A DNA stretch of 64,000 nt from NCBI RefSeq assembly GCF_044324875.1, contig NZ_CP172185.1; one strand, given 5' to 3'. The position numbers and the translations under genes were made by a program. This stretch comes from Escherichia coli (GTDB lineage Bacteria; Pseudomonadota; Gammaproteobacteria; Enterobacterales; Enterobacteriaceae). The notes under the pieces were generated by a model, which saw only the letters and a program-made list of their open reading frames with translations, was not told the DNA's origin and did no database searches. Positions 2,353 through 37,756 of the stretch are shown here, in pieces (positions within the stretch are counted from its first letter, which is position 1; every line of letters starts with the position of its first letter).

Positions 2353-3173
2353 AGATGAATAAATCCGTCGTAGACATGTACCGCCGGGCCAGTCATATAT
2401 AACGGGTGACCCGGACCTTTCCAGGCGATATCAAGACGACCGCCGGGGAGTTCCACGCGTACTTCTTCGGCCAGCAAACCTTGCTGAATCCCTACCGCCA
2501 CCGCCGCACATGCGCCGCTGCCGCAGGCCTGGGTTTCTCCTGCCCCACGCTCATAAACGCGTAAACGAATATGCTCGCGCTTAACCACTTGCATAAAACC
2601 GATATTGGCGCGCTCCGGAAAACGCTCATGGCTTTCCAGAACAGGACCAAGCGTTTCTACCGCCGCGGTATCGACATCATCGACCTGAATCACGCAGTGC
2701 GGATTTCCCATCGACACCACGCCACATAAGATTGTCTGCTCGGCGGCGCGCATAATATAGGTCTTTTCCGCTTTGTTAGCGCGAAACGGCACAGCGGAAG
2801 GTTCGAAGTTGGGCTCGCCCATGTTTACGCGAACCAGATCATCATCGGTGACGGTCAGAACCATCCGCCCGTTGGCGGTGCTGACGCGGATATCGCGCTT
2901 ATTGGTCAGCCCTTTCAGACGCACAAAACGGGCAAAGCAGCGCGCGCCGTTGCCGCACTGCGCCACTTCACTGCCATCGGCATTGAAAATGCGATAGTGA
3001 AAATCCAGTTCAGGATCATACGGTGGCTCAACCACCAGCAGTTGGTCAAACCCTACCCCCAGGTGCCGATCCGCCAGGCGACGAATCAGCTCCGGTGAAA
3101 AAAAGACATTCTGCGTTACCGCGTCGACGACCATAAAATCGTTGCCAAGGCCATGCATTTTCGAGAACTGCAT
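2349..3173 (-). CDS. dapF: Diaminopimelate epimerase
   Basis: ORF translation matches DapF ([17 protein letters not shown]...); 274 aa from the second Met; catalytic Cys motifs GNGARC and ACGSGA present. Confidence 0.95.
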
Positions 3174-3209
3174 CATTTACTCCAATCACGCGGGTACAGA
3201 AACTGACTT

Positions 3210-3413
3210 TTAGTAATTCACCTGGGATGGACCATCGCCAGTGGCGCGGTCGTTTTTATCCGGCACTGTGGATTGCGTTTGCGTCTCTACCGGTTTGGTC
3301 GGCGGTGGTGCGTTTTTATCTGCAGGCGGGAAATAGAGCGGACCTTTCAGACCGCAGCCCGTCAGGCTGAAGAGAGTAAGTAATACAGTGAGTGCCTTAA
3401 ACACGTTTTTCAT
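3210..3413 (-). CDS. yifL: Small lipoprotein YifL (LptM)
   Basis: 67-aa ORF with lipobox LTGC and Pro-rich tail; immediately upstream of dapF as in E. coli. Confidence 0.9.
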   Translation of the reverse strand: MKNVFKALTVLLTLFSLTGCGLKGPLYFPPADKNAPPPTKPVETQTQSTVPDKNDRATGDGPSQVNY

Positions 3414-3490
3414 TATGGATTGCCTGTAAAGTTCATCGCTTTCTGCTTTCTATCATCGCAGGAGAAGGCGTAAAAGCAAGCGTTTAGCGA

Positions 3491-3670
3491 CTCTTTATGA
3501 AGTCTGAAAAGTGAGGAAATGCTGCGAGTATAACGCTTACACGTGGCGATTTATGTTTTGCTGGTAGTTTCGTGATCAACACCTCGTGCCAGGATGGCTT
3601 TATGCACTATCGCAATGTGGTTTGTTTGTTGTCTTGTTCGTTGTTTTTATCGTCGGCATGGGGCTTTTAA
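3491..3670 (+). repeat. Copy 1 of conserved 5' leader module of the islet paralogs (decayed)
   Basis: About 175 bp alignable by eye to 4579-4760 and in part to 7455-7565; contains AGGA RBS and ATG. Confidence 0.7.
3602..3670 (+). pseudogene. Truncated signal-peptide remnant of an islet paralog
   Basis: 22-codon frame MHYRNVVCLLSCSLFLSSAWGF-stop; same signal peptide as the ORFs at 4688 and 7498 but the Cys after AWG is replaced by Phe and followed by TAA. Confidence 0.5.
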
Positions 3671-12865: not shown

Positions 12866-13807
12866 ATGTTAGACAATGTTTTAAGAATTGCCACACGCCA
12901 AAGCCCACTTGCACTCTGGCAGGCACACTATGTCAAAGACAAGTTGATGGCGAGCCATCCGGGCCTGGTCGTTGAACTGGTACCGATGGTGACGCGCGGC
13001 GATGTGATTCTTGATACGCCGCTGGCGAAAGTAGGCGGAAAAGGCTTATTTGTAAAAGAGCTGGAAGTCGCGCTCCTCGAAAATCGCGCCGATATCGCCG
13101 TACATTCAATGAAAGATGTGCCGGTTGAATTCCCGCAAGGTCTGGGACTGGTCACTATTTGTGAGCGTGAAGATCCTCGCGATGCCTTTGTGTCCAATAA
13201 CTATGACAGTCTGGATGCGTTACCGGCAGGCAGTATCGTCGGGACGTCCAGTTTACGTCGCCAGTGCCAACTGGCTGAACGCCGCCCGGATCTGATTATC
13301 CGCTCCCTGCGCGGCAACGTCGGCACTCGCCTGAGCAAACTGGATAACGGCGAATACGATGCCATCATTCTTGCCGTAGCCGGACTAAAACGTTTAGGTC
13401 TGGAGTCACGCATTCGCGCCGCGTTGCCACCCGAGATTTCTCTTCCGGCGGTAGGACAAGGTGCGGTGGGCATTGAATGCCGCCTTGATGATACACGCAC
13501 TCGCGAGCTGCTTGCCGCGCTGAATCACCACGAAACTGCACTGCGCGTTACCGCAGAACGCGCCATGAATACCCGTCTCGAAGGCGGATGTCAGGTACCA
13601 ATTGGTAGCTACGCCGAGCTTATTGATGGCGAAATCTGGCTGCGTGCGCTGGTCGGCGCGCCGGACGGTTCGCAGATTATTCGCGGTGAACGCCGCGGTG
13701 CGCCGCAAGATGCCGAACAAATGGGGATTTCGCTGGCAGAAGAGCTACTGAATAACGGCGCGCGCGAGATCCTTGCTGAAGTCTATAACGGAGACGCCCC
13801 GGCATGA
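12866..13807 (+). CDS. hemC: Porphobilinogen deaminase
   Basis: Translation matches HemC from [20 protein letters not shown]; track ORF starts 21 nt upstream at 12845. Confidence 0.9.
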
Positions 13808-14544
13808 GTATCCTGGTCACCCGCCCGTCTCCCGCTGGAGAAGAGTTAGTGAGCCGTCTGCGCACACTGGGGCAGGTGGCCTGGCATTTTCCGCTGATTG
13901 AGTTTTCTCCGGGTCGACAATTACCGCAACTTGCTGATCAACTTGCAGCGCTGGGGGAGAGGGATCTGTTGTTTGCCCTCTCGCAACACGCGGTTGCTTT
14001 TGCCCAATCACAGCTGCATCAGCAAGATCGTAAATGGCCCCGACTACCTGATTATTTCGCCATTGGACGCACCACCGCACTGGCGCTACATACCGTAAGC
14101 GGACAGAAGATTCTCTACCCGCAGGATCGGGAAATCAGCGAAGTCTTGCTACAATTACCTGAATTACAAAATATTGCGGGCAAACGTGCGCTGATATTAC
14201 GTGGCAATGGCGGTCGTGAGCTAATTGGGGATACCCTGACGGCGCGCGGTGCTGAGGTCACTTTTTGTGAATGTTATCAACGATGCGCAATCCATTACGA
14301 TGGTGCAGAAGAAGCGATGCGCTGGCAATCCCGCGAGGTGACGACGGTCGTTGTTACCAGCGGTGAAATGTTGCAGCAACTCTGGTCGCTGATCCCACAA
14401 TGGTATCGTGAGCACTGGTTACTACACTGTCGACTATTGGTCGTCAGTGAGCGTTTGGCGAAACTCGCCCGGGAACTGGGCTGGCAAGACATTAAGGTCG
14501 CCGATAACGCTGACAACGATGCGCTTTTACGGGCATTACAATAA
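13804..14544 (+). CDS. hemD: Uroporphyrinogen-III synthase
   Basis: 246-aa ORF overlapping hemC stop; conserved hemCDXY order. Confidence 0.9.
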
Positions 14545-14565
14545 CTCTCATAACAGGAAGCCATA

Positions 14566-15765
14566 ATGACGGAACAAGAAAAAACCTCCGCCGTGGTTGA
14601 AGAGACCAGGGAGGCCGTGGACACCACGTCACAACCTGTCGCAACAGAAAAAAAGAGTAAGAACAATACCGCATTGATTCTCAGCGCGGTGGCTATTGCT
14701 ATTGCTCTGGCGGCGGGCGTCGGTTTGTATGGCTGGGGTAAACAACAGGCCGTCAATCAGACTGCCACCAGCGATGCCCTGGCTAATCAACTGACGGCAC
14801 TGCAAAAAGCCCAGGAGAGCCAAAAAGCTGAGCTGGAAGGCATTATCAAGCAACAAGCTGTACAGCTTGAGCAGGCGAATCGTCAGCAAGAAACGCTGGC
14901 AAAACAGTTGGATGAAGTCCAACAAAAGGTCGCCACCATTTCCGGCAGCGATGCTAAAACCTGGCTGCTGGCTCAGGCCGATTTTCTGGTGAAACTCGCA
15001 GGACGGAAGCTGTGGAGCGATCAAGACGTCACGACCGCTGCAGCGTTGCTGAAAAGTGCAGATGCCAGCCTGGCGGATATGAATGACCCGAGTCTGATTA
15101 CCGTTCGTCGGGCAATTACCGATGATATCGCCAGCCTTTCTGCGGTATCGCAGGTGGATTATGACGGCATCATCCTGAAGCTCAATCAGCTTTCAAATCA
15201 GGTAGATAACCTGCGTCTGGCCGATAATGACAGCGATGGTTCGCCGATGGATTCCGACGGTGAAGAGCTTTCCAGTTCCATCAGCGAATGGCGTATCAAT
15301 CTGCAAAAAAGCTGGCAGAATTTTATGGACAACTTCATTACGATTTGCCGTCGTGATGACACCGCCGTACCGCTGTTAGCGCCAAATCAGGATATCTATC
15401 TGCGCGAAAATATTCGCTCTCGCCTGCTGGTCGCGGCACAAGCCGTACCGCGTCATCAGGAAGAGACTTATCGCCAGGCGCTGGAGAACGTCTCCACCTG
15501 GGTACGTGCTTACTACGATACTGATGATGCCACCACCAAAGCGTTCCTCGACGAGGTGGACCAGTTAAGCCAGCAAAATATCTCGATGGATCTCCCGGAA
15601 ACCCTGCAAAGCCAGGCGATGCTGGAAAAACTGATGCAGACTCGCGTGCGTAACCTGTTGGCACAACCGGCAGCGGGGACAACGGAAGCTAAACCTGCAC
15701 CTGCACCTGCACCTGCACCTGCACCGCAAGCTGATACTCCGGCAGCCGCGCCGCAAGGAGAATAA
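14566..15765 (+). CDS. hemX: HemX membrane protein
   Basis: 399-aa ORF with N-terminal TM segment, coiled-coil Q/A-rich region and Pro-Ala-rich C-terminus. Confidence 0.9.
15694..15723 (+). repeat. Hexanucleotide tandem repeat (cctgca x5) inside hemX
   Basis: Five perfect in-frame copies encoding [10 protein letters not shown]. Confidence 0.9.
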
Positions 15766-15767
15766 CC

Positions 15768-16964
15768 ATGCTAAAAGTGTTATTGCTCTTTGTTTTGCTG
15801 ATTGCGGGGATAGTGGTTGGCCCGATGATTGCCGGACACCAGGGTTACGTGCTGATCCAGACCGACAACTACAATATTGAAACCAGCGTCACTGGCCTGG
15901 CGATTATTTTGATTCTGGCAATGGTAGTGCTGTTTGCCATTGAGTGGCTACTGCGGCGGATCTTCCGCACAGGCACACACACCCGTGGGTGGTTTGTCGG
16001 ACGTAAGCGTCGCCGTGCCCGTAAGCAGACCGAACAGGCGCTGCTGAAACTGGCGGAAGGCGATTATCAGCAAGTTGAAAAGCTGATGGCGAAAAATGCC
16101 GATCACGCTGAACAACCGGTGGTGAACTATCTGCTGGCTGCCGAAGCCGCGCAACAACGCGGTGATGAAGCACGCGCCAACCAACATCTGGAACGCGCAG
16201 CGGAGCTGGCCGGCAACGACACAATTCCGGTAGAAATCACCCGTGTACGTCTGCAACTGGCCCGTAATGAAAACCATGCAGCACGTCACGGCGTTGATAA
16301 GCTGCTGGAAGTTACGCCACGCCATCCGGAAGTATTACGTCTGGCGGAACAGGCGTATATCCGCACTGGTGCATGGAGTTCGCTGCTGGATATCATCCCA
16401 TCAATGGCAAAAGCCCACGTTGGCGATGAAGAGCATCGTGCAATGCTGGAACAACAGGCATGGATTGGCCTGATGGATCAGGCGCGTGCCGATAACGGTA
16501 GCGAAGGTTTGCGTAACTGGTGGAAAAACCAAAGCCGGAAAACGCGTCATCAGGTGGCGTTACAGGTGGCAATGGCGGAACATCTTATTGAATGTGACGA
16601 TCATGATACTGCCCAGCAAATTATCATCGACGGCCTGAAACGCCAGTATGACGATCGCCTGCTGCTGCCGATCCCGCGTCTGAAAACCAATAACCCGGAA
16701 CAGCTGGAAAAAGTGCTGCGCCAACAGATCAAAAACGTGGGCGATCGCCCGTTGTTGTGGAGCACACTGGGTCAGTCGCTGATGAAGCACGGCGAATGGC
16801 AGGAAGCATCGCTCGCCTTCCGCGCGGCGCTGAAACAACGTCCGGACGCCTACGATTACGCATGGCTTGCCGACGCGCTGGACAGACTGCACAAGCCGGA
16901 AGAAGCCGCAGCGATGCGTCGCGATGGCTTGATGTTAACGTTGCAGAACAACCCGCCACAGTAA
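15768..16964 (+). CDS. hemY: HemY, TPR-containing heme biosynthesis-associated membrane protein
   Basis: 398-aa ORF with N-terminal TM helices; last gene of hemCDXY. Confidence 0.9.
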   Translation: MLKVLLLFVLLIAGIVVGPMIAGHQGYVLIQTDNYNIETSVTGLAIILILAMVVLFAIEWLLRRIFRTGTHTRGWFVGRKRRRARKQTEQALLKLAEGDYQQVEKLMAKNADHAEQPVVNYLLAAEAAQQRGDEARANQHLERAAELAGNDTIPVEITRVRLQLARNENHAARHGVDKLLEVTPRHPEVLRLAEQAYIRTGAWSSLLDIIPSMAKAHVGDEEHRAMLEQQAWIGLMDQARADNGSEGLRNWWKNQSRKTRHQVALQVAMAEHLIECDDHDTAQQIIIDGLKRQYDDRLLLPIPRLKTNNPEQLEKVLRQQIKNVGDRPLLWSTLGQSLMKHGEWQEASLAFRAALKQRPDAYDYAWLADALDRLHKPEEAAAMRRDGLMLTLQNNPPQ

Positions 16965-16970
16965 TCTATA

Positions 16971-17000
16971 TCGCCTCGTTCAGAGGCGATATTTTTTTAC
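16971..17000 (+). terminator. Intrinsic terminator after hemY
   Basis: Hairpin atcgcctcgttcagaggcgat followed by a T-run. Confidence 0.75.
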
Positions 17001-17004
17001 CAGG

Positions 17005-17604
17005 ATGTCAAAATTGCGCACGCCGTCCCGCTATCTTTTTCGCTTGCCATCGCATGAAATTACTCCTTTTCGGGCAACGCTCTTTTTAATCTTGTTGATA
17101 TGTGCCGCTCTGGCTGGCGTAAGTTGGCTGATTATTTCCTTTGTGCGTACGGGCAATACATTCATCTTCTGGTTAACACTTTTTATTGGGTATCTGATAG
17201 CTGCGGCGAAGCAGGAAAAAATCAAGCTCCTCAAGAAGTACCGAATCATGGCAGATAAACGTCGGGGACGCTCCATTTGCCAGTTCGCCCGCGAATTTGA
17301 CACCTACACCGTAGATACATGGGTGATTCGTGCGGTGTGGGATACCTTGCAAGGAAACGGTTATATCGATTACCCACTGCCACTGAAAGCCGATGATATA
17401 CTGGACGATGATCTGGATTTGGTGAGCGACGCAGTCGAGTTAGAAGAGCTGGTTGAAGATACCGCTGCTCGTTGCGGGCGCGATCTATGCGGAATAGAAG
17501 AGAATCCGTTTCTTCCCATCGTCACGGTAGGCTCTCTTGTAAGAGTGTTAAACGCGCAACCGATGACCCAGGAGCGACGTAACCAGTTCTTTATCCGGTC
17601 ATAA
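17005..17604 (+). CDS. Hypothetical protein (199 aa), predicted membrane-anchored with acidic C-terminal region
   Basis: Uninterrupted ORF with coding-like composition; hydrophobic N-terminal segments; acidic stretch DDILDDDLDLVSDAVELEELVED; weak RBS at 17005; stop abuts the glmZ terminator. Confidence 0.4.
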   Translation: MSKLRTPSRYLFRLPSHEITPFRATLFLILLICAALAGVSWLIISFVRTGNTFIFWLTLFIGYLIAAAKQEKIKLLKKYRIMADKRRGRSICQFAREFDTYTVDTWVIRAVWDTLQGNGYIDYPLPLKADDILDDDLDLVSDAVELEELVEDTAARCGRDLCGIEENPFLPIVTVGSLVRVLNAQPMTQERRNQFFIRS

Positions 17605-17809
17605 AAAAACGCCTGCTCTTATTACGGAGCAGGCGTTAAAACAGGTCTGTATGACAACAAGTGGGTGCTTCACTCAACGTTGTGTCCATGGTGTCTGATG
17701 AGGCATAAGCGACATCTGTCAGTGGACGATAAGCACCGTAAACGGCTCTGCGTCATTCCGGAGTTTATGAGGCACTAAGGCGAACATAAGAGATGGAATG
17801 AGCATCTAC
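17603..17809 (-). ncRNA. glmZ: GlmZ small regulatory RNA
   Basis: Minus-strand sequence matches remembered GlmZ from 5' GTAGATGCTCATTCCATCTC through the terminator GCCTGCTCCGTAATAAGAGCAGGCGTTTTTTT; lies between hemY and aslA. Confidence 0.8.
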
Positions 17810-18233
17810 TCGTTTATTATGCCACAGAGAACCGGGAAATAACATCCCTTAACACTTGTTATGAGATAATTCTGTAATCCTCTTTGCTTCCTGAGTAATA
17901 ACTTCCTGAGTGAATATTTCTCCTGCGCACGATTCTACACATATATATAATGAATAATAAAAGTCATTCAATTAATAACATATATATTAATTGCCGTTAA
18001 AACTAAAAACAGCATCAATAATCAACGCGATATAACATCACCGCCTTACATATCACCTGCGCCAGAGGTAGGATTGAAAACGCTCTCCTGATTTTCCAAT
18101 TCATTTTCTGGATAAATAAATAATTTATTTTTATCACTATTATTTATGCAATCATCCTGTCAGGGAGAGGGATCTCAATTATCAATGCTTAATTACGTCA
18201 TCATTTTGACGACATGAAACCGGAGCATTTTGC

Positions 18234-19889
18234 ATGGAATTTTCGTTTTCACCCAAACTTCTTGTTGTAGCTGTCGCCGCCGCTCTTCCTCTCATGGCCA
18301 GCGCAGCAGATACCCCGTCAACCGCCACCGCACGCAAAGGCTTTGCCGGATACGATCACCCAAACCAGTATCTGGTTAAACCGGCGACCACTATTGCCGA
18401 CAACATGATGCCGGTGATGCAGCATCCTGCACAAGACAAAGAAACCCAGCAGAAGCTGGCAGAACTTGAGAAAAAAACCGGTAAGAAACCGAACGTGGTT
18501 GTTTTCTTGCTGGATGATGTGGGCTGGATGGATGTTGGCTTTAACGGCGGTGGCGTGGCGGTGGGTAACCCTACACCAGATATCGACGCCGTTGCCAGCC
18601 AGGGGCTGATTTTAACTTCGGCGTATTCTCAACCGAGTTCTTCCCCAACCCGCGCCACGATTCTTACCGGACAATACTCCATCCACCACGGCATTCTGAT
18701 GCCGCCAATGTACGGGCAACCGGGCGGTCTGCAAGGGTTAACCACTCTGCCGCAGTTGCTGCACGATCAGGGCTACGTCACTCAGGCCATCGGGAAATGG
18801 CATATGGGGGAAAACAAAGAGTCGCAGCCGCAGAACGTTGGCTTTGATGATTTCCGCGGTTTTAACTCGGTATCCGATATGTATACCGAATGGCGTGATG
18901 TTCACGTCAACCCGGAAGTCGCCCTGAGCCCGGATCGTTCTGAATACATCCAAAAACTGCCGTTCAGCAAAGATGACGTTCATGCCGTGCGCGGCGGTGA
19001 ACAGGAAGCCATTGCCGACATTACGCCGAAATATATGGAAGACCTGGATCAACGCTGGATGGAATATGGCGTTAAGTTCCTCGACAAGATGGCGAAGAGC
19101 GATAAGCCTTTCTTCCTCTACTACGGCACTCGCGGCTGTCACTTCGATAACTACCCTAATGCGAAATATGCGGGTAGCTCTCCGGCGCGCACCTCTTACG
19201 GCGACTGCATGGTGGAGATGAACGATATCTTCGCCAATCTGTATAAAGCACTGGAGAAAAACGGTCAGCTTGATAACACGCTGATTGTGTTCACCTCTGA
19301 TAACGGTCCGGAAGCCGAAGTTCCGCCGCACGGTCGCACACCGTTCCGCGGTGCGAAAGGTTCTACATGGGAAGGCGGCGTTCGTGTGCCAACCTTCGTT
19401 TACTGGAAAGGCATGATCCAACCGCGTAAATCTGACGGCATTGTCGATCTGGCGGATCTCTTCCCTACGGCGCTGGATCTGGCGGGGCATCCTGGGGCGA
19501 AAGTAGCGAATTTAGTACCGAAAACCACCTTTATCGATGGTGTGGACCAGACATCTTTCTTCCTGGGAACAAATGGTCAGTCTAACCGTAAGGCCGAGCA
19601 CTACTTCCTCAACGGTAAACTTTCTGCTGTGCGTATGGATGAGTTCAAGTATCACGTCCTGATCCAGCAACCGTACGCGTATACCCAGAGCGGGTATCAG
19701 GGTGGATTCACCGGCACAGTAATGCAAACGGCGGGATCGTCGGTGTTTAACCTGTACACCGATCCGCAGGAAAGCGACTCTATCGGCGTGCGCCATATCC
19801 CAATGGGTGTACCGCTACAGACCGAAATGCATGCGTATATGGAGATCCTGAAAAAATATCCACCACGCGCGCAGATTAAATCTGATTAA
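18234..19889 (+). CDS. aslA: Arylsulfatase-family protein AslA
   Basis: 551-aa ORF with signal peptide and sulfatase motifs ([11 protein letters not shown] region). Confidence 0.9.
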
Positions 19890-19917
19890 GCCGGCGCTAT
19901 CGCTGAGATCAACCTTT

Positions 19918-19943
19918 GCCGGATGCGATGCTGACGCATCCGA
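19918..19943. repeat. REP-like palindromic element
   Basis: gccggatgcgatgctgacgcatccg palindrome between convergent aslA and aslB; same 23-mer at 41438. Confidence 0.6.
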
Positions 19944-19979
19944 CAATCAACCGCAGGCGGCCACAAAATGGCTGCTATT

Positions 19980-21215
19980 TTACTTATTCACCACCAGCAA
20001 ATGCGCCTGCATAATGTCGCTGGCCGGACGACCGTGCGCCAGCAAATCAACCATTGCTTTAAGATATGGCGGTAGATGGCGGAAATAACGCTGATACCCG
20101 GCACACAAATAATTCAGCCCGGGTTTGCCGCTGGCATCGAGCATAAAGCGGTGTTTCGGGCAGCCTCCCCAGCACGCTTTTAACACGTTGCAACTGCGAC
20201 ACTGTGCCGGTAACTGCTTGAATTTATCTTCACCAAATGCCTGCTGTTGCGGGGAATCAATCATTTCTGCAATTGTCTGCTGAAGCATATTCCCCAGTCG
20301 ATATTGCGGATAAACATAGTGATCGCAGGCGTAAACGTCGCCGTTGTGTTCAACAATCACCGAGCGCCCACAGGTTGGCTGATGATGGCAAACCGCTCCT
20401 GGCGCACCGACAAAATTGGCAAACGCCCATTCGATATTCATCACGAAAATATTGCCGACGTCGCGTTTGATCCAGTGGTCGAATATCGCCACCAAAAATT
20501 CACCGAACTCCTCGGGGTGTACCGACCATTCCGTCAGTTCGCCCTGAATATCGCCGGGACCATGTAGCTTAAGTCCAGCATGAACAGCCGTTTCATCAGC
20601 CAGGCGTTCGACCACAGGAATAAACTGGATAAACTCAACGCCTGCATCACACAGAAAATCATAGATTTGCAAAGGTTGTAACGCACTGGTGCGATTTACG
20701 CAGACCAGCGCGTTATAGTCGACATGATGTTTTTGCAGGAGCGTCAGGGCACGCATCACCAGCTTATGCGTTGGTCTGCCGCCTTTGGTCACGCGATATT
20801 GATTGTGGATCTCAGCCGGACCATCCAGCGATAACCCAACAAGGAAATGATTTTCTGCCAGAAATGCACACCATTCGTCATCAAGCAGAACGCCGTTAGT
20901 CTGGAAGCTGTTACTTATCTTCCTGCCAGCACCATATTTCGCCTGTAGCGCCACGGCACGGCGGTAAAAATCCAGCCCGAGTAACGTTGGTTCGCCGCCC
21001 TGCCAGGTAAAAGCCACTTCGTTTTGGGTTTCGCTGGCAGCGATATAGTGACGGACATACGCTTCCAGCGTGTCATCGTCCATATGCGTGACTGGCTTTT
21101 CGCGGTAAAGGGATTGTTTTTCGAGATAAAAACAGTAGTCACAGTTCAGATTACAATCGGAACCGCTCGGTTTCGCCATCACATGAAAAGCACGCGTTGG
21201 AACCTGTTGCAGCAT
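19980..21215 (-). CDS. aslB: Anaerobic sulfatase-maturating enzyme homolog (radical SAM)
   Basis: Translation from MLQQVPTRAFHVMAKPSGSDCNLNCDYCFY with the CxxxCxxC radical SAM motif; track ORF extends 10 codons upstream. Confidence 0.85.
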   Translation of the reverse strand: MLQQVPTRAFHVMAKPSGSDCNLNCDYCFYLEKQSLYREKPVTHMDDDTLEAYVRHYIAASETQNEVAFTWQGGEPTLLGLDFYRRAVALQAKYGAGRKISNSFQTNGVLLDDEWCAFLAENHFLVGLSLDGPAEIHNQYRVTKGGRPTHKLVMRALTLLQKHHVDYNALVCVNRTSALQPLQIYDFLCDAGVEFIQFIPVVERLADETAVHAGLKLHGPGDIQGELTEWSVHPEEFGEFLVAIFDHWIKRDVGNIFVMNIEWAFANFVGAPGAVCHHQPTCGRSVIVEHNGDVYACDHYVYPQYRLGNMLQQTIAEMIDSPQQQAFGEDKFKQLPAQCRSCNVLKACWGGCPKHRFMLDASGKPGLNYLCAGYQRYFRHLPPYLKAMVDLLAHGRPASDIMQAHLLVVNK

Positions 21216-21361
21216 GGTCGCTCCTTGCCTGAAGTCATCCTTCAATAAGTTAAGGGCGAAATCATACCGTGGCGCAATGAGTTATTACGGGCGTTTATTG
21301 CGAAGGGAGAGTGACGAAATGCACAGAAAACAAAAAACCCCGCCGAAGCGGGGTTCAAAAT

Positions 21362-35153: not shown

Positions 35154-36257
35154 TTATTTGGTTAAATTGGGGCTGCCACCACGATTTCTACGCAGTCTGC
35201 GTTTTACGCGCTTAATAAAGCGAGCAACTTTCCAGGCACGCTTAATGCAATATCCATAGAGGAAGAATGCTAGCAAAAAGAGCACCAGCATGACCCACTC
35301 CGGGACAAAATGAGAATATTCTGCCAGCACCCCAATGGAGGCGAGCAGAGCTGCGGCAAGGGTAATCAGCACAAACGCCTGGCGGGAAGTAAACCCGGCA
35401 CGCATGATCAAATGGTGAATATGCTGGCGATCAGGAGAGAACGGACTCATGCCTTTACGCAGGCGACGGTACATAATCGCCACCATATCCATTAGCGGAA
35501 TGGCGATTATCCACAAAGCGGTAACCGGGCTGATGGGATGGGTTTTGCCCTGGGTCGTTTCGAGCAGGATCCAGATAACGGTAAAACCAATCAGCGTACT
35601 GCCCGCATCACCCATAAAGACTTTGTAGCGGCGACCCAGGATACCAAGGTTAAGCATGATGTATGGCAGGATGGCGGCGATCATCGCAAAACACCAGATT
35701 GCAAGGCTGGTTTGCCCGTCGAACCACAAAATCATACCGATTGCTGCAAACGAGACGCAGGACAACCCGCCCAGCAAGCCATCAATGCCATCAACCATGT
35801 TGAACGCATTAATGGCCGCCCAGACGGCAAATAGCGTCAGGAAGTAACCAAACGGTCCGAGCACCATCTCCCAGGAGCCAAAGATATAACCCAGGCTACT
35901 GAGATAAAGGTTGCCAAACACCATCATAACAATGCCAACAGCAGCCTGTATGGTGGCACGGATTTTTACGCTGATATCAAAACGGTCATCCAGCGCACCG
36001 ATAAACACCAGTACACCGGCACAAGCGAGATAGAGAGATGCATGCGGAATATAGTAATCGACAATTCCGAACGTGAAGCAAATCCCTGCGTAAACCGAAA
36101 TACCCCCAACGAGTGGTATCAACCCCTGGTGACGTTTGCGGAAGTTAGGTTTATCCACTAAACCGACTTTTTTTGCCACCTTACGGGCAAAAAACAGAAA
36201 CAGTGTCGTGAATAAAAAAATACTGATGAGATCAGTACTCACTGTCAGTAAATTCAC
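35154..36257 (-). CDS. wecA: UDP-GlcNAc:undecaprenyl-phosphate GlcNAc-1-phosphate transferase
   Basis: 367-aa polytopic ORF, first gene of the wec cluster, just downstream of rho. Confidence 0.9.
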   Translation of the reverse strand: MNLLTVSTDLISIFLFTTLFLFFARKVAKKVGLVDKPNFRKRHQGLIPLVGGISVYAGICFTFGIVDYYIPHASLYLACAGVLVFIGALDDRFDISVKIRATIQAAVGIVMMVFGNLYLSSLGYIFGSWEMVLGPFGYFLTLFAVWAAINAFNMVDGIDGLLGGLSCVSFAAIGMILWFDGQTSLAIWCFAMIAAILPYIMLNLGILGRRYKVFMGDAGSTLIGFTVIWILLETTQGKTHPISPVTALWIIAIPLMDMVAIMYRRLRKGMSPFSPDRQHIHHLIMRAGFTSRQAFVLITLAAALLASIGVLAEYSHFVPEWVMLVLFLLAFFLYGYCIKRAWKVARFIKRVKRRLRRNRGGSPNLTK

Positions 36258-36452
36258 AATGCATGCTCTCAGAGAAAATTATTAGCAGAAGTATAACCAC
36301 GAAGACCTTTATTCAGAAGGGAAAGTCCGTTCCGAACCCACCAGTCCTGTGCAAAAATTAACCATTTGATATGCAAATTGCATAACACACCAGCAAAATC
36401 CAGGAATTTTCCTAACATTGCCAGCGCGGCATTAAGATTACAGATATAAAAG

Positions 36453-36482
36453 CAAAACGCCACGTAAACACGTGGCGTTTTT
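36453..36482 (-). terminator. Intrinsic terminator after rho
   Basis: Palindrome aaaacgccacgtaaacacgtggcgtttt with flanking T-tracts on both strands. Confidence 0.8.
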
Positions 36483-36496
36483 GGCATAAGACAAAT

Positions 36497-37756
36497 TTAT
36501 GAGCGTTTCATCATTTCGAAGAAATCGTCATTGGTCTTGGTCATTGCCAGTTTATTAATGAGGAATTCCATTGCATCGATTTCGCCCATCGGGTGAATGA
36601 TTTTGCGCAGGATCCACATTTTCTGCAGTTCTTCCTGAGTAGTGAGCAGCTCTTCTTTACGGGTACCGGAACGGTTGTAGTCGATTGCCGGGAAGACGCG
36701 TTTTTCAGCGATCTTACGAGAGAGGTGCAGTTCCATGTTGCCTGTACCTTTAAACTCTTCGTAGATAACTTCGTCCATCTTGGAACCGGTATCGATAAGC
36801 GCGGTAGCGATGATGGTCAGGCTGCCGCCCTCTTCCACGTTACGCGCCGCACCGAAGAAGCGTTTCGGACGATGCAGGGCGTTGGCATCCACACCACCGG
36901 TCAGCACTTTACCTGACGCCGGAACAACGGTGTTGTAAGCGCGCGCCAGACGAGTGATGGAGTCGAGCAGGATGATAACGTCTTTCTTGTGCTCAACCAG
37001 GCGTTTCGCCTTCTCGATCACCATTTCCGCAACCTGAACGTGGCGAGATGCTGGTTCGTCAAAGGTAGAAGCAACAACTTCACCTTTTACCAGACGCTGC
37101 ATCTCGGTTACTTCTTCCGGACGTTCGTCGATCAGCAGAACCATCAGCACACAATCCGGGTGGTTGTAAGCAATGCTCTGAGCAATGTTCTGCAGCAGCA
37201 TGGTTTTACCGGCTTTCGGCGGTGCCACAATCAGACCTCGCTGACCACGACCGATAGGTGATGCCAGATCCAGTACGCGAGCGGTTAAATCTTCAGTAGA
37301 ACCGTTACCACGTTCCATACGCAGACGAGAGTTTGCGTGCAGCGGGGTTAAGTTCTCAAAGAGGATTTTGTTGCGGGCGTTTTCAGGTTTGTCGAAGTTA
37401 ACTTCGTTAACTTTCAGCAGCGCAAAATAGCGTTCACCTTCTTTCGGCGGGCGAATCTTACCAGAGATGGTATCACCAGTACGGAGGTTGAAACGGCGGA
37501 TTTGGCTAGGGGAAACGTAGATGTCATCAGGACCGGCGAGGTAGGAGCTGTCTGCGGAACGGAGGAAACCAAATCCATCCTGCAATATCTCCAGTACACC
37601 ATCACCAAAGATATCTTCGCCACTCTTTGCGTGCTGCTTCAGGATGGCAAAAATAATGTCCTGCTTACGCATACGAGCCAGGTTTTCCAGCCCCATATTT
37701 TCGCCGAGAGTGATCAGCTCAGAAACCGGCGTATTCTTTAATTCGGTAAGATTCAT
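36497..37756 (-). CDS. rho: Transcription termination factor Rho
   Basis: Translation matches Rho from [25 protein letters not shown] (419 aa); track ORF extends upstream into the leader. Confidence 0.97.

Follow-up and report, generated by a model that had tools for sequence, protein, structure and literature searches.

The glmZ–aslA spacer of Escherichia coli is an AT-rich, H-NS-occupied divergent intergenic region containing a predicted aslA promoter

The small RNA gene glmZ and the sulfatase gene aslA are divergently oriented in a 64-kb window of Escherichia coli DNA (the whole stretch that was analysed) and are separated by a 424-bp AT-rich spacer (positions 17810–18233). The left boundary of the spacer is formed by glmZ (17603–17809, minus strand), which was identified by a full-length match to the Rfam family RF00083 (218 bits). 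The glmZ transcription start (+1) lies at position 17809 on the minus strand, and a terminator scan places the glmZ terminator hairpin at 17608–17637. The right boundary is formed by aslA (18234–19889, plus strand), which encodes a 551-residue sulfatase (Pfam PF00884, E-value of 4e-71) and is annotated as 'arylsulfatase AslA' in RefSeq. On the far side of glmZ, hemY (15768–16964, plus strand) has hemD and hemX to its left in the same neighbourhood and is followed by a hypothetical open reading frame (ORF; 17005–17604, plus strand; RefSeq start at 17014). On the far side of aslA, aslB (approximately 19981–21216, minus strand; RefSeq annotation) encodes a protein with radical SAM and SPASM domains, and a tRNA cluster lies beyond aslB.

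The spacer is 100% identical to that of E. coli 042 (NC_017626.1), a genome in which hemY, aslA and aslB are annotated, and a search of 5426 complete E. coli genomes recovered it in 5406 of them at a coverage of at least 80%. E. coli K-12 has the same gene arrangement and the same 424-bp spacer with a sequence identity of 94.8% and zero indels, and K-12 glmZ (b4456) is 100% identical. Given the equal length and the absence of indels, experiments performed on the K-12 spacer can be mapped onto the present sequence base for base. The first-pass annotation had placed an AT-rich tract upstream of aslA and divergent to glmZ, and this placement is supported by the Rfam match of glmZ, the RefSeq annotation of aslA and the comparison with K-12. 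The limits that it gave, 17830–18233, enclose AT-rich DNA, but position 17830 is already located within the glmZ core promoter, and the true limits of the feature are those of the whole intergenic spacer. Two minus-strand ORFs of 40 residues each (17849–17971 and 18015–18137) were not treated as genes because they lie in the least conserved part of the spacer, which also carries indels.

The tract (17830–18233) exhibits a GC content of 0.334, which is 4.8 standard deviations below the window mean of 0.521 (standard deviation of 0.039, the spread of GC content among 404-bp windows in the 64 kb). An equally low GC content is observed in just 0.13% of the 404-bp windows, every one of which is located at this locus, and the minimum of the 64 kb is 0.327 at 17804–18207. 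Thus, the earlier description of a markedly AT-rich stretch of about 400 bp before aslA holds. Two 100-bp troughs with GC contents of 0.27–0.28 (17900–18049 and 18100–18199) are separated by a less AT-rich island with a GC content of 0.41 (18000–18099). The tract is unusual even among intergenic DNA, since GC contents of 0.40–0.57 are seen in the remaining non-coding gaps of the window that measure 100 bp or more. TpA steps are 2.3 times as dense as in the window on average (99.8th percentile), and the 64 kb has its longest run consisting only of A and T (23 bp) at 18112–18134. The ATATAT and AATAA runs to which the first reading had drawn attention are present; the string that it quoted is located at 17936–17993, where (AT)n-like runs are observed at 17941–17951 and 17980–17992 and the sequence ACATATATAT occurs twice (17939–17948 and 17978–17987). 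Elsewhere in the window, a GC content as low as 0.38 over 404 bp is reached only at 36168–36571 and 53681–54084, both of which coincide with non-coding gaps (36258–36496 and 53473–54032).

The low GC content of the spacer is not accompanied by the features of acquired DNA. Unlike H-NS-silenced xenogeneic islands, the locus has flanking genes of normal GC content (0.51–0.52 for those next to the glmZ–aslA spacer) and is core to the species, and it is therefore not regarded as a xenogeneic island. The GC content of aslA across enterobacterial loci (0.50–0.54) likewise resembles that of the rest of the locus. An origin from a mobile element or repeat was also rejected, as the tract is core to the species and its repeats are short and probably due to chance, with the exception of a single 15-bp tandem duplication (CTTCCTGAGTAATAA and CTTCCTGAGTGAATA, 17887–17916). 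This duplication is shared by 042 and K-12 and is apparently single-copy in the other Escherichia species.

Intrinsic curvature was predicted with a wedge model, whose script was validated on phased (A6) and unphased A-tracts. The mean predicted curvature of the tract is 7.1–7.7° per turn compared with window means of 6.2–6.8° per turn, which corresponds to the 86th percentile of the 424-bp windows. The global intrinsic curvature of the tract is consequently not exceptional. The predicted curvature peaks locally at two sites, at approximately 11–14° per turn near position 18000 and at 17–20° per turn around the aslA start codon (18220–18232), and both peaks belong to the top 0.1–0.5% of positions. 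The earlier description of the tract as curved DNA is therefore plausible only locally, at these two predicted peaks.

At the left edge of the spacer, the glmZ core σ70 promoter (17810–17849, minus strand) contains an extended −10 element, TGgCATAAT (17816–17824, minus strand), and a weak −35 element, ATGTTA (17840–17845, minus strand), with an 18-bp spacer between the −35 and −10 elements. The core promoter differs between 042 and K-12 by one nucleotide. In K-12, glmZ is transcribed from one constitutive σ70 promoter in which σ54 plays no role, and mutations in the −35 and −10 elements lower or abolish the promoter activity (Gopel et al. 2011, PMC3045617). Deletion to position −40 leaves the full activity, making all sequence further upstream dispensable for glmZ, and GlrR does not bind a K-12 fragment spanning −424 to +32, which covers the whole spacer (PMC3045617). 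In the tract itself, no GlrR box (TGTCN10GACA) is present even with two mismatches allowed, the sole match to a σ54 −24/−12 element lacks an intact GG, and a search for the exact IHF consensus yielded no site. Because 40 bp suffice, GlrR does not bind and GlrR, σ54 and IHF motifs are lacking, approximately 385 of the 424 bp have no detectable function for glmZ.

The spacer occupies the same position relative to glmZ as the upstream regions of the group I and II Enterobacteriaceae, which use σ54, GlrR and IHF, whereas E. coli glmZ belongs to group III with its single σ70 promoter (Gopel et al. 2011). The tract could accordingly be read as a degenerate relic of the upstream region through which σ54, GlrR and IHF activate glmZ in Yersinia and Salmonella, given that many Enterobacteriaceae have three GlrR sites and IHF sites before glmZ and that these were lost in Escherichia (PMC3045617). 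However, the E. coli spacer is devoid of every site that defines these regions, the K-12 binding and truncation experiments exclude them, and the IHF ChIP data contain no peak near the locus (Myers 2013, K-12). Moreover, an AT-rich tract also precedes aslA in genomes where glmZ is absent from the locus, as described below. The relic reading is largely refuted.

H-NS occupancy of the spacer has been catalogued in two genome-wide studies of K-12, and the finding is in this respect already known. In the first study, the spacer is listed at 85.83 min as the divergent spacer 'aslA < HNS > glmZ' (Shimada 2014, PMC3946193, Table 1). It binds the RpoD holoenzyme in vitro and holds one of the 987 H-NS sites obtained by genomic SELEX with K-12 DNA (PMC3946193). 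Among the type-A (divergent) spacers of that study, it is one of 63 listed with both RpoD and H-NS marks. In the second study, H-NS-bound regions were mapped by ChIP-chip in MG1655 grown in glucose minimal medium (Myers 2013, PMC3688515, Table S3). The coordinates of that study refer to NC_000913.2, with an offset of 1977 from NC_000913.3 that was fixed by the 'glmZ/hemY' label at 3984609, and the tract corresponds to 3984031–3984454. The K-12 tract is located entirely inside a 1281-bp aerobic H-NS region (3983614–3984895) and is overlapped from each side by two anaerobic regions (3983553–3984164 and 3984258–3985271). The H-NS occupancy suggested earlier from composition is thus documented for the orthologous K-12 spacer both in vitro and in vivo, and the occupancy presumably carries over to 042.

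The anaerobic H-NS regions leave a gap of 94 bp that corresponds to 18006–18100, that is, to the less AT-rich island containing the predicted aslA core promoter. Given the coarse resolution of ChIP-chip, this gap is only a hint. H-NS regions longer than 1 kb, termed 'extended', make up half of the 722–782 regions found genome-wide and were interpreted as filaments that correlate negatively with RNA polymerase occupancy (PMC3688515). H-NS marks are common, being found on 36% of the divergent spacers with RpoD sites (PMC3946193) and in the hundreds of ChIP-chip regions just mentioned, and binding alone is therefore no proof of regulation. The aslA gene is absent from Table S11 and from the searched text of the supplements of Myers 2013, and it is not listed in Table S2 of Higashi 2016, in which aslB and hemY are scored as not bound. 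Literature searches on the aslA promoter returned nothing. The only FNR peak at the locus lies inside glmZ at approximately 17655 (NC_000913.2 position 3984609), was detected by ChIP-seq only and is labelled '5' of glmZ/hemY'; no FNR-dependent expression change accompanies it (Myers 2013).

The tract resembles known H-NS-bound AT-rich promoters in its very low GC content, its richness in TpA steps and its long A/T runs around a σ70 promoter, as well as in being bound both in vitro (SELEX) and in vivo (ChIP-chip regions of 1.0–1.3 kb in K-12). At proU and bgl, bridging is made possible by AT-rich DNA on both sides of the core promoter, and the tract is laid out alike. A high-affinity H-NS nucleation motif, tCGATAAATT, was reportedly defined by Lang et al. 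in 2007. No site in the tract matches this 10-bp motif with one mismatch or fewer, and one site matches with two mismatches (18109, TGGATAAATA). The motif is not enriched, as 77% of the composition-matched shuffles equal the tract and the shuffles contain a mean of 1.5 sites. Thus, the tract differs from H-NS-silenced promoters in lacking a good match to the nucleation motif, and silencing is here a plausible extension of the binding data. It also differs from known H-NS-bound promoters in that an active, constitutive promoter, that of glmZ, is positioned at the edge of the bound region.

On the aslA side, a σ70-type promoter is predicted from a −35 element, CTTACA (18045–18050, plus strand), and a −10 element, TAGGAT (18069–18074, plus strand), with an 18-bp spacer. 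This promoter predicts an aslA transcription start near position 18081 (approximately 3,986,160 in K-12 NC_000913.3) and a leader of 153 nucleotides. With the criteria used, a scan of the 450 bp preceding aslA in 042 gave CTTACA-18-TAGGAT as its sole σ70-like match. Apart from the Shine-Dalgarno sequence and the ATG codon, the only sequence that aligns across genera is (C/T)TTACA-18 bp-TA(G/A/C)(G/T/A)AT. It occurs at −131 to −189 relative to the ATG and keeps the 18-bp spacer in Escherichia, Pseudocitrobacter, Kluyvera, Superficieibacter and MGYG-HGUT-00110. The counterpart in Salmonella enterica subsp. arizonae is TTTACA-16-TATAGT, and no such promoter match was found upstream of aslA in Citrobacter sp. 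wls619. Overall, promoter hexamers separated by 16–18 bp and conserved in the orthologous regions are present in most of the enterobacterial taxa scanned. A different aslA promoter, TTAACA-18-TGTAAT at 17849–17878, was proposed previously as a best match to the consensus (Shimada 2014, PMC3946193, Table 1), but it is degraded in other Escherichia species. The cross-genus comparison favours CTTACA-18-TAGGAT as the putative aslA promoter.

Upstream of the predicted promoter, a conserved A/T-rich element (AAAAACAGCATCAATAATCAA, 18005–18025, plus strand) lies between approximately −77 and −57 relative to the predicted start of aslA transcription and coincides with the local peak of predicted curvature near position 18000. 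The element is present in all Escherichia species, is recognisable in Pseudocitrobacter and is a candidate UP element or activator site. Its position raises the alternative that the tract is an activator platform, in which a UP element and sites for positive regulators would control aslA in response to signals such as sulfur limitation, anaerobiosis or envelope stress, with H-NS as a secondary or counter-silenced partner. The −35 and −10 elements, which each match the consensus at four of six positions and are separated by 18 bp, constitute a promoter of a type that usually depends on assistance, and the aslA mRNA level of E. coli K1 changes with rpoE and LL-37, although this change was reported as an indirect effect. 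Nevertheless, the tract contains no acceptable FNR, CRP or IHF consensus, no IHF ChIP peak lies near the locus, the lone FNR peak is inside glmZ and is not associated with an expression change, the 18005–18025 block is not kept beyond Escherichia and Pseudocitrobacter, and no regulator is known. An activator platform is thus improbable as an account of the tract.

The predicted aslA leader (18081–18233, plus strand; 153 nucleotides) has a GC content of 0.33 and contains the 23-bp A/T-only run (18112–18134) and a Shine-Dalgarno sequence, GGAG (18222–18225, plus strand). Two complementary GC-rich blocks (GCTCTCCTGA at 18082–18091 and TCAGGGAGAG at 18160–18169) and a near-palindrome (GTCATCA-TTT-TGACGAC, 18197–18213) are observed in the leader. 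These elements would allow the leader to act as a cis-regulatory RNA, in which a stem (18082–18092 with 18159–18169) encloses the A/T run, while the ribosome-binding site is adjoined by a hairpin or an anti-Shine-Dalgarno pairing. In an alignment of seven Escherichia sequences, the 10 pairs and one bulge between the GC-rich islands are paired in 97% of cells, one A-to-G change converts a U-A pair to a U-G pair with pairing kept, and the hairpin at 18197–18213 carries one compensatory double change in E. albertii. However, the minimum free energy of the leader is no better than that of shuffled sequences (z = −0.76), and its covariation is matched by 74 of 500 shuffles when assessed by RNAalifold and pair counting on the seven sequences. 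For the 5′-proximal long-range stem, 11 of 13 taxa failed to reach significance in a cross-genus shuffle test, the other two reaching only a nominal P < 0.05, and an Rfam search with E-values up to 5 returned nothing but glmZ. A structured leader RNA was rejected as unsupported and is highly improbable.

The evolutionary behaviour of the spacer was analysed in 77 AslA loci collected by a scan of species-representative genomes. The glmZ–aslA arrangement is also found in five further Escherichia lineages, Pseudocitrobacter, Kluyvera, Superficieibacter and MGYG-HGUT-00110. In the 13 glmZ-linked taxa, the GC content of the spacer is 0.30–0.36, and the spacer length is 402–436 bp with outliers of 303 and 496 bp. 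In S. enterica subsp. arizonae and Citrobacter sp. wls619, aslA-aslB is located downstream of a gene for a 759-residue malic-enzyme/PTA (maeB-like) protein, and no glmZ gene is found near aslA-aslB at these two loci. The 424 bp before aslA in these genomes have a GC content of approximately 0.31, with 100-bp windows down to 0.17–0.24, and the AT-rich region extends over approximately 450–600 bp. Since the low GC content recurs before aslA in the two genomes that have no glmZ neighbour, it is tied to aslA rather than to glmZ. The comparison suggests that aslA-aslB moved together with its control region.

Within Escherichia, conservation is unevenly distributed along the spacer. The conserved segments are the glmZ promoter to approximately −70, the A/T-rich element at 18005–18025, the GC-richer island at 18067–18093 and the bulk of the 170 bp that precede the ATG, and this proximal part is the best conserved of the spacer. 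The fast-evolving distal AT-rich spacer (17850–18004, no strand assigned), which contains the tandem repeat and the (AT)n-like runs and is dispensable for glmZ in K-12, carries most of the differences between 042 and K-12 and most of the between-species variation. Positions 17880–17990 are poorly conserved, and the central ∼150 bp evolve almost neutrally. Between Escherichia species, the spacer is 76–82% identical, compared with 70–74% for the third-codon positions of aslA and 89–90% for the whole gene.

The main rival reading is suggested by these values. The tract would be a passive spacer, in which weakly constrained DNA under AT-biased mutation is combined with the usual AT-richness of promoters; H-NS would be incidental without a meaningful effect on aslA, and aslA expression would be low through a weak promoter or a missing activator. 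The interspecies identity of the spacer is near that of third-codon positions and far under that of the whole aslA gene, and the spacer was unalignable between genera by blastn. In the laboratory, reporter constructs are integrated into the chromosome at this spacer (PMC13069688). In E. coli FLI21 (locus L080, positions 2733–3500), an IS1 element replaces 149 bp (17953–18101) that hold both the AT-rich core and the predicted aslA promoter, and aslA is directly preceded by IS1 and the final 132 bp of the leader. H-NS marks are, in addition, frequent throughout the genome. On the other hand, the GC content of 0.30–0.36 is 5–15 points under that of the other intergenic gaps in the window, the low GC content and a length of approximately 400–436 bp are maintained in most taxa of several genera, and the low GC content persists in the different genomic context of S. 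arizonae and Citrobacter. Furthermore, clear conservation is seen in the proximal 170 bp and in the promoter element. A passive spacer is considered unlikely. The same observations bear on the earlier characterisation of the tract as a dense regulatory region, which was overstated in view of the 40 bp needed by glmZ, the lack of GlrR binding, the poorly conserved central ∼150 bp and the IS1 replacement in FLI21. In all, the tract is disrupted in approximately 16 of 5422 genomes.

The reading preferred here, with a probability of roughly 0.6, is that H-NS, bound to the AT-rich DNA on either side of a weak, conserved aslA promoter, keeps aslA expression low and that the glmZ promoter at the edge is constitutive. 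The left 40 bp are the constitutive extended −10 σ70 promoter of glmZ, and the remainder would functionally belong to aslA, comprising ∼155 bp of weakly constrained AT-rich DNA, the conserved A/T element, the σ70-type promoter and an AT-rich leader of ∼150 nucleotides. It is proposed that H-NS occupies the tract because it is very AT-rich and TpA-rich. H-NS would bind the AT-rich segments that flank the aslA core promoter and oligomerise or bridge across it, and aslA expression would stay low and basal unless a particular condition or factor relieved the effect of H-NS, with the glmZ promoter at the edge remaining active. A more far-reaching version, which is quite unlikely, holds that aslA-aslB carries its own AT-rich control region everywhere and that H-NS flanks rather than covers the core promoter, as the 94-bp gap in the anaerobic K-12 regions hints, yielding a poised, counter-silenceable sulfatase switch. 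The control region may then consist of the conserved σ70 promoter with its fixed 18-bp spacer and the AT-rich leader of ∼150 nucleotides. If true, the poised switch would serve a sulfatase that is implicated in the invasion of brain endothelium by E. coli K1.

In summary, a simple composition scan singled out a genuine but ordinary AT-rich divergent spacer that is occupied by H-NS and matters little beyond annotation. New with respect to the published catalogues are the association of the low GC content with aslA rather than glmZ and the predicted CTTACA-18 bp-TAGGAT promoter, which is kept in most of the enterobacterial taxa scanned. As by-products, the analysis provides a predicted location of the aslA promoter and leader that can be tested, and it shows an AT-rich region upstream of aslA that is kept across genomic contexts. 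Detection of the AslA sulfatase in laboratory E. coli is difficult. Silencing of aslA by H-NS, if it occurs, would help to explain this poor detectability and would suggest conditions under which expression could be sought in pathogens such as K1 and 042.

Beyond the spacer, the segment between hemY and the 3′ end of glmZ (16965–17604) contains in 042 a hypothetical gene of 196–199 residues, whose stop codon abuts the glmZ terminator. Searches of Pfam, NCBIfam and PADLOC with this gene gave no match. K-12 has only 47 bp at this position. Among 5426 complete E. coli genomes, 690 carry the segment, in one of two allele classes (at least 95% identity in 105 genomes and 80–90% identity in 585 genomes). 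The surrounding region (13800–21250) is rather divergent between 042 and K-12, with identities of 93.5% for aslB, 94.3% for aslA, 95.6% for hemY and 96.5% for hemX, and is more alike at hemD (98.8%) and glmZ (100%). For aslB, a comparatively high dS of 0.18 has been reported (Higashi et al. 2016).
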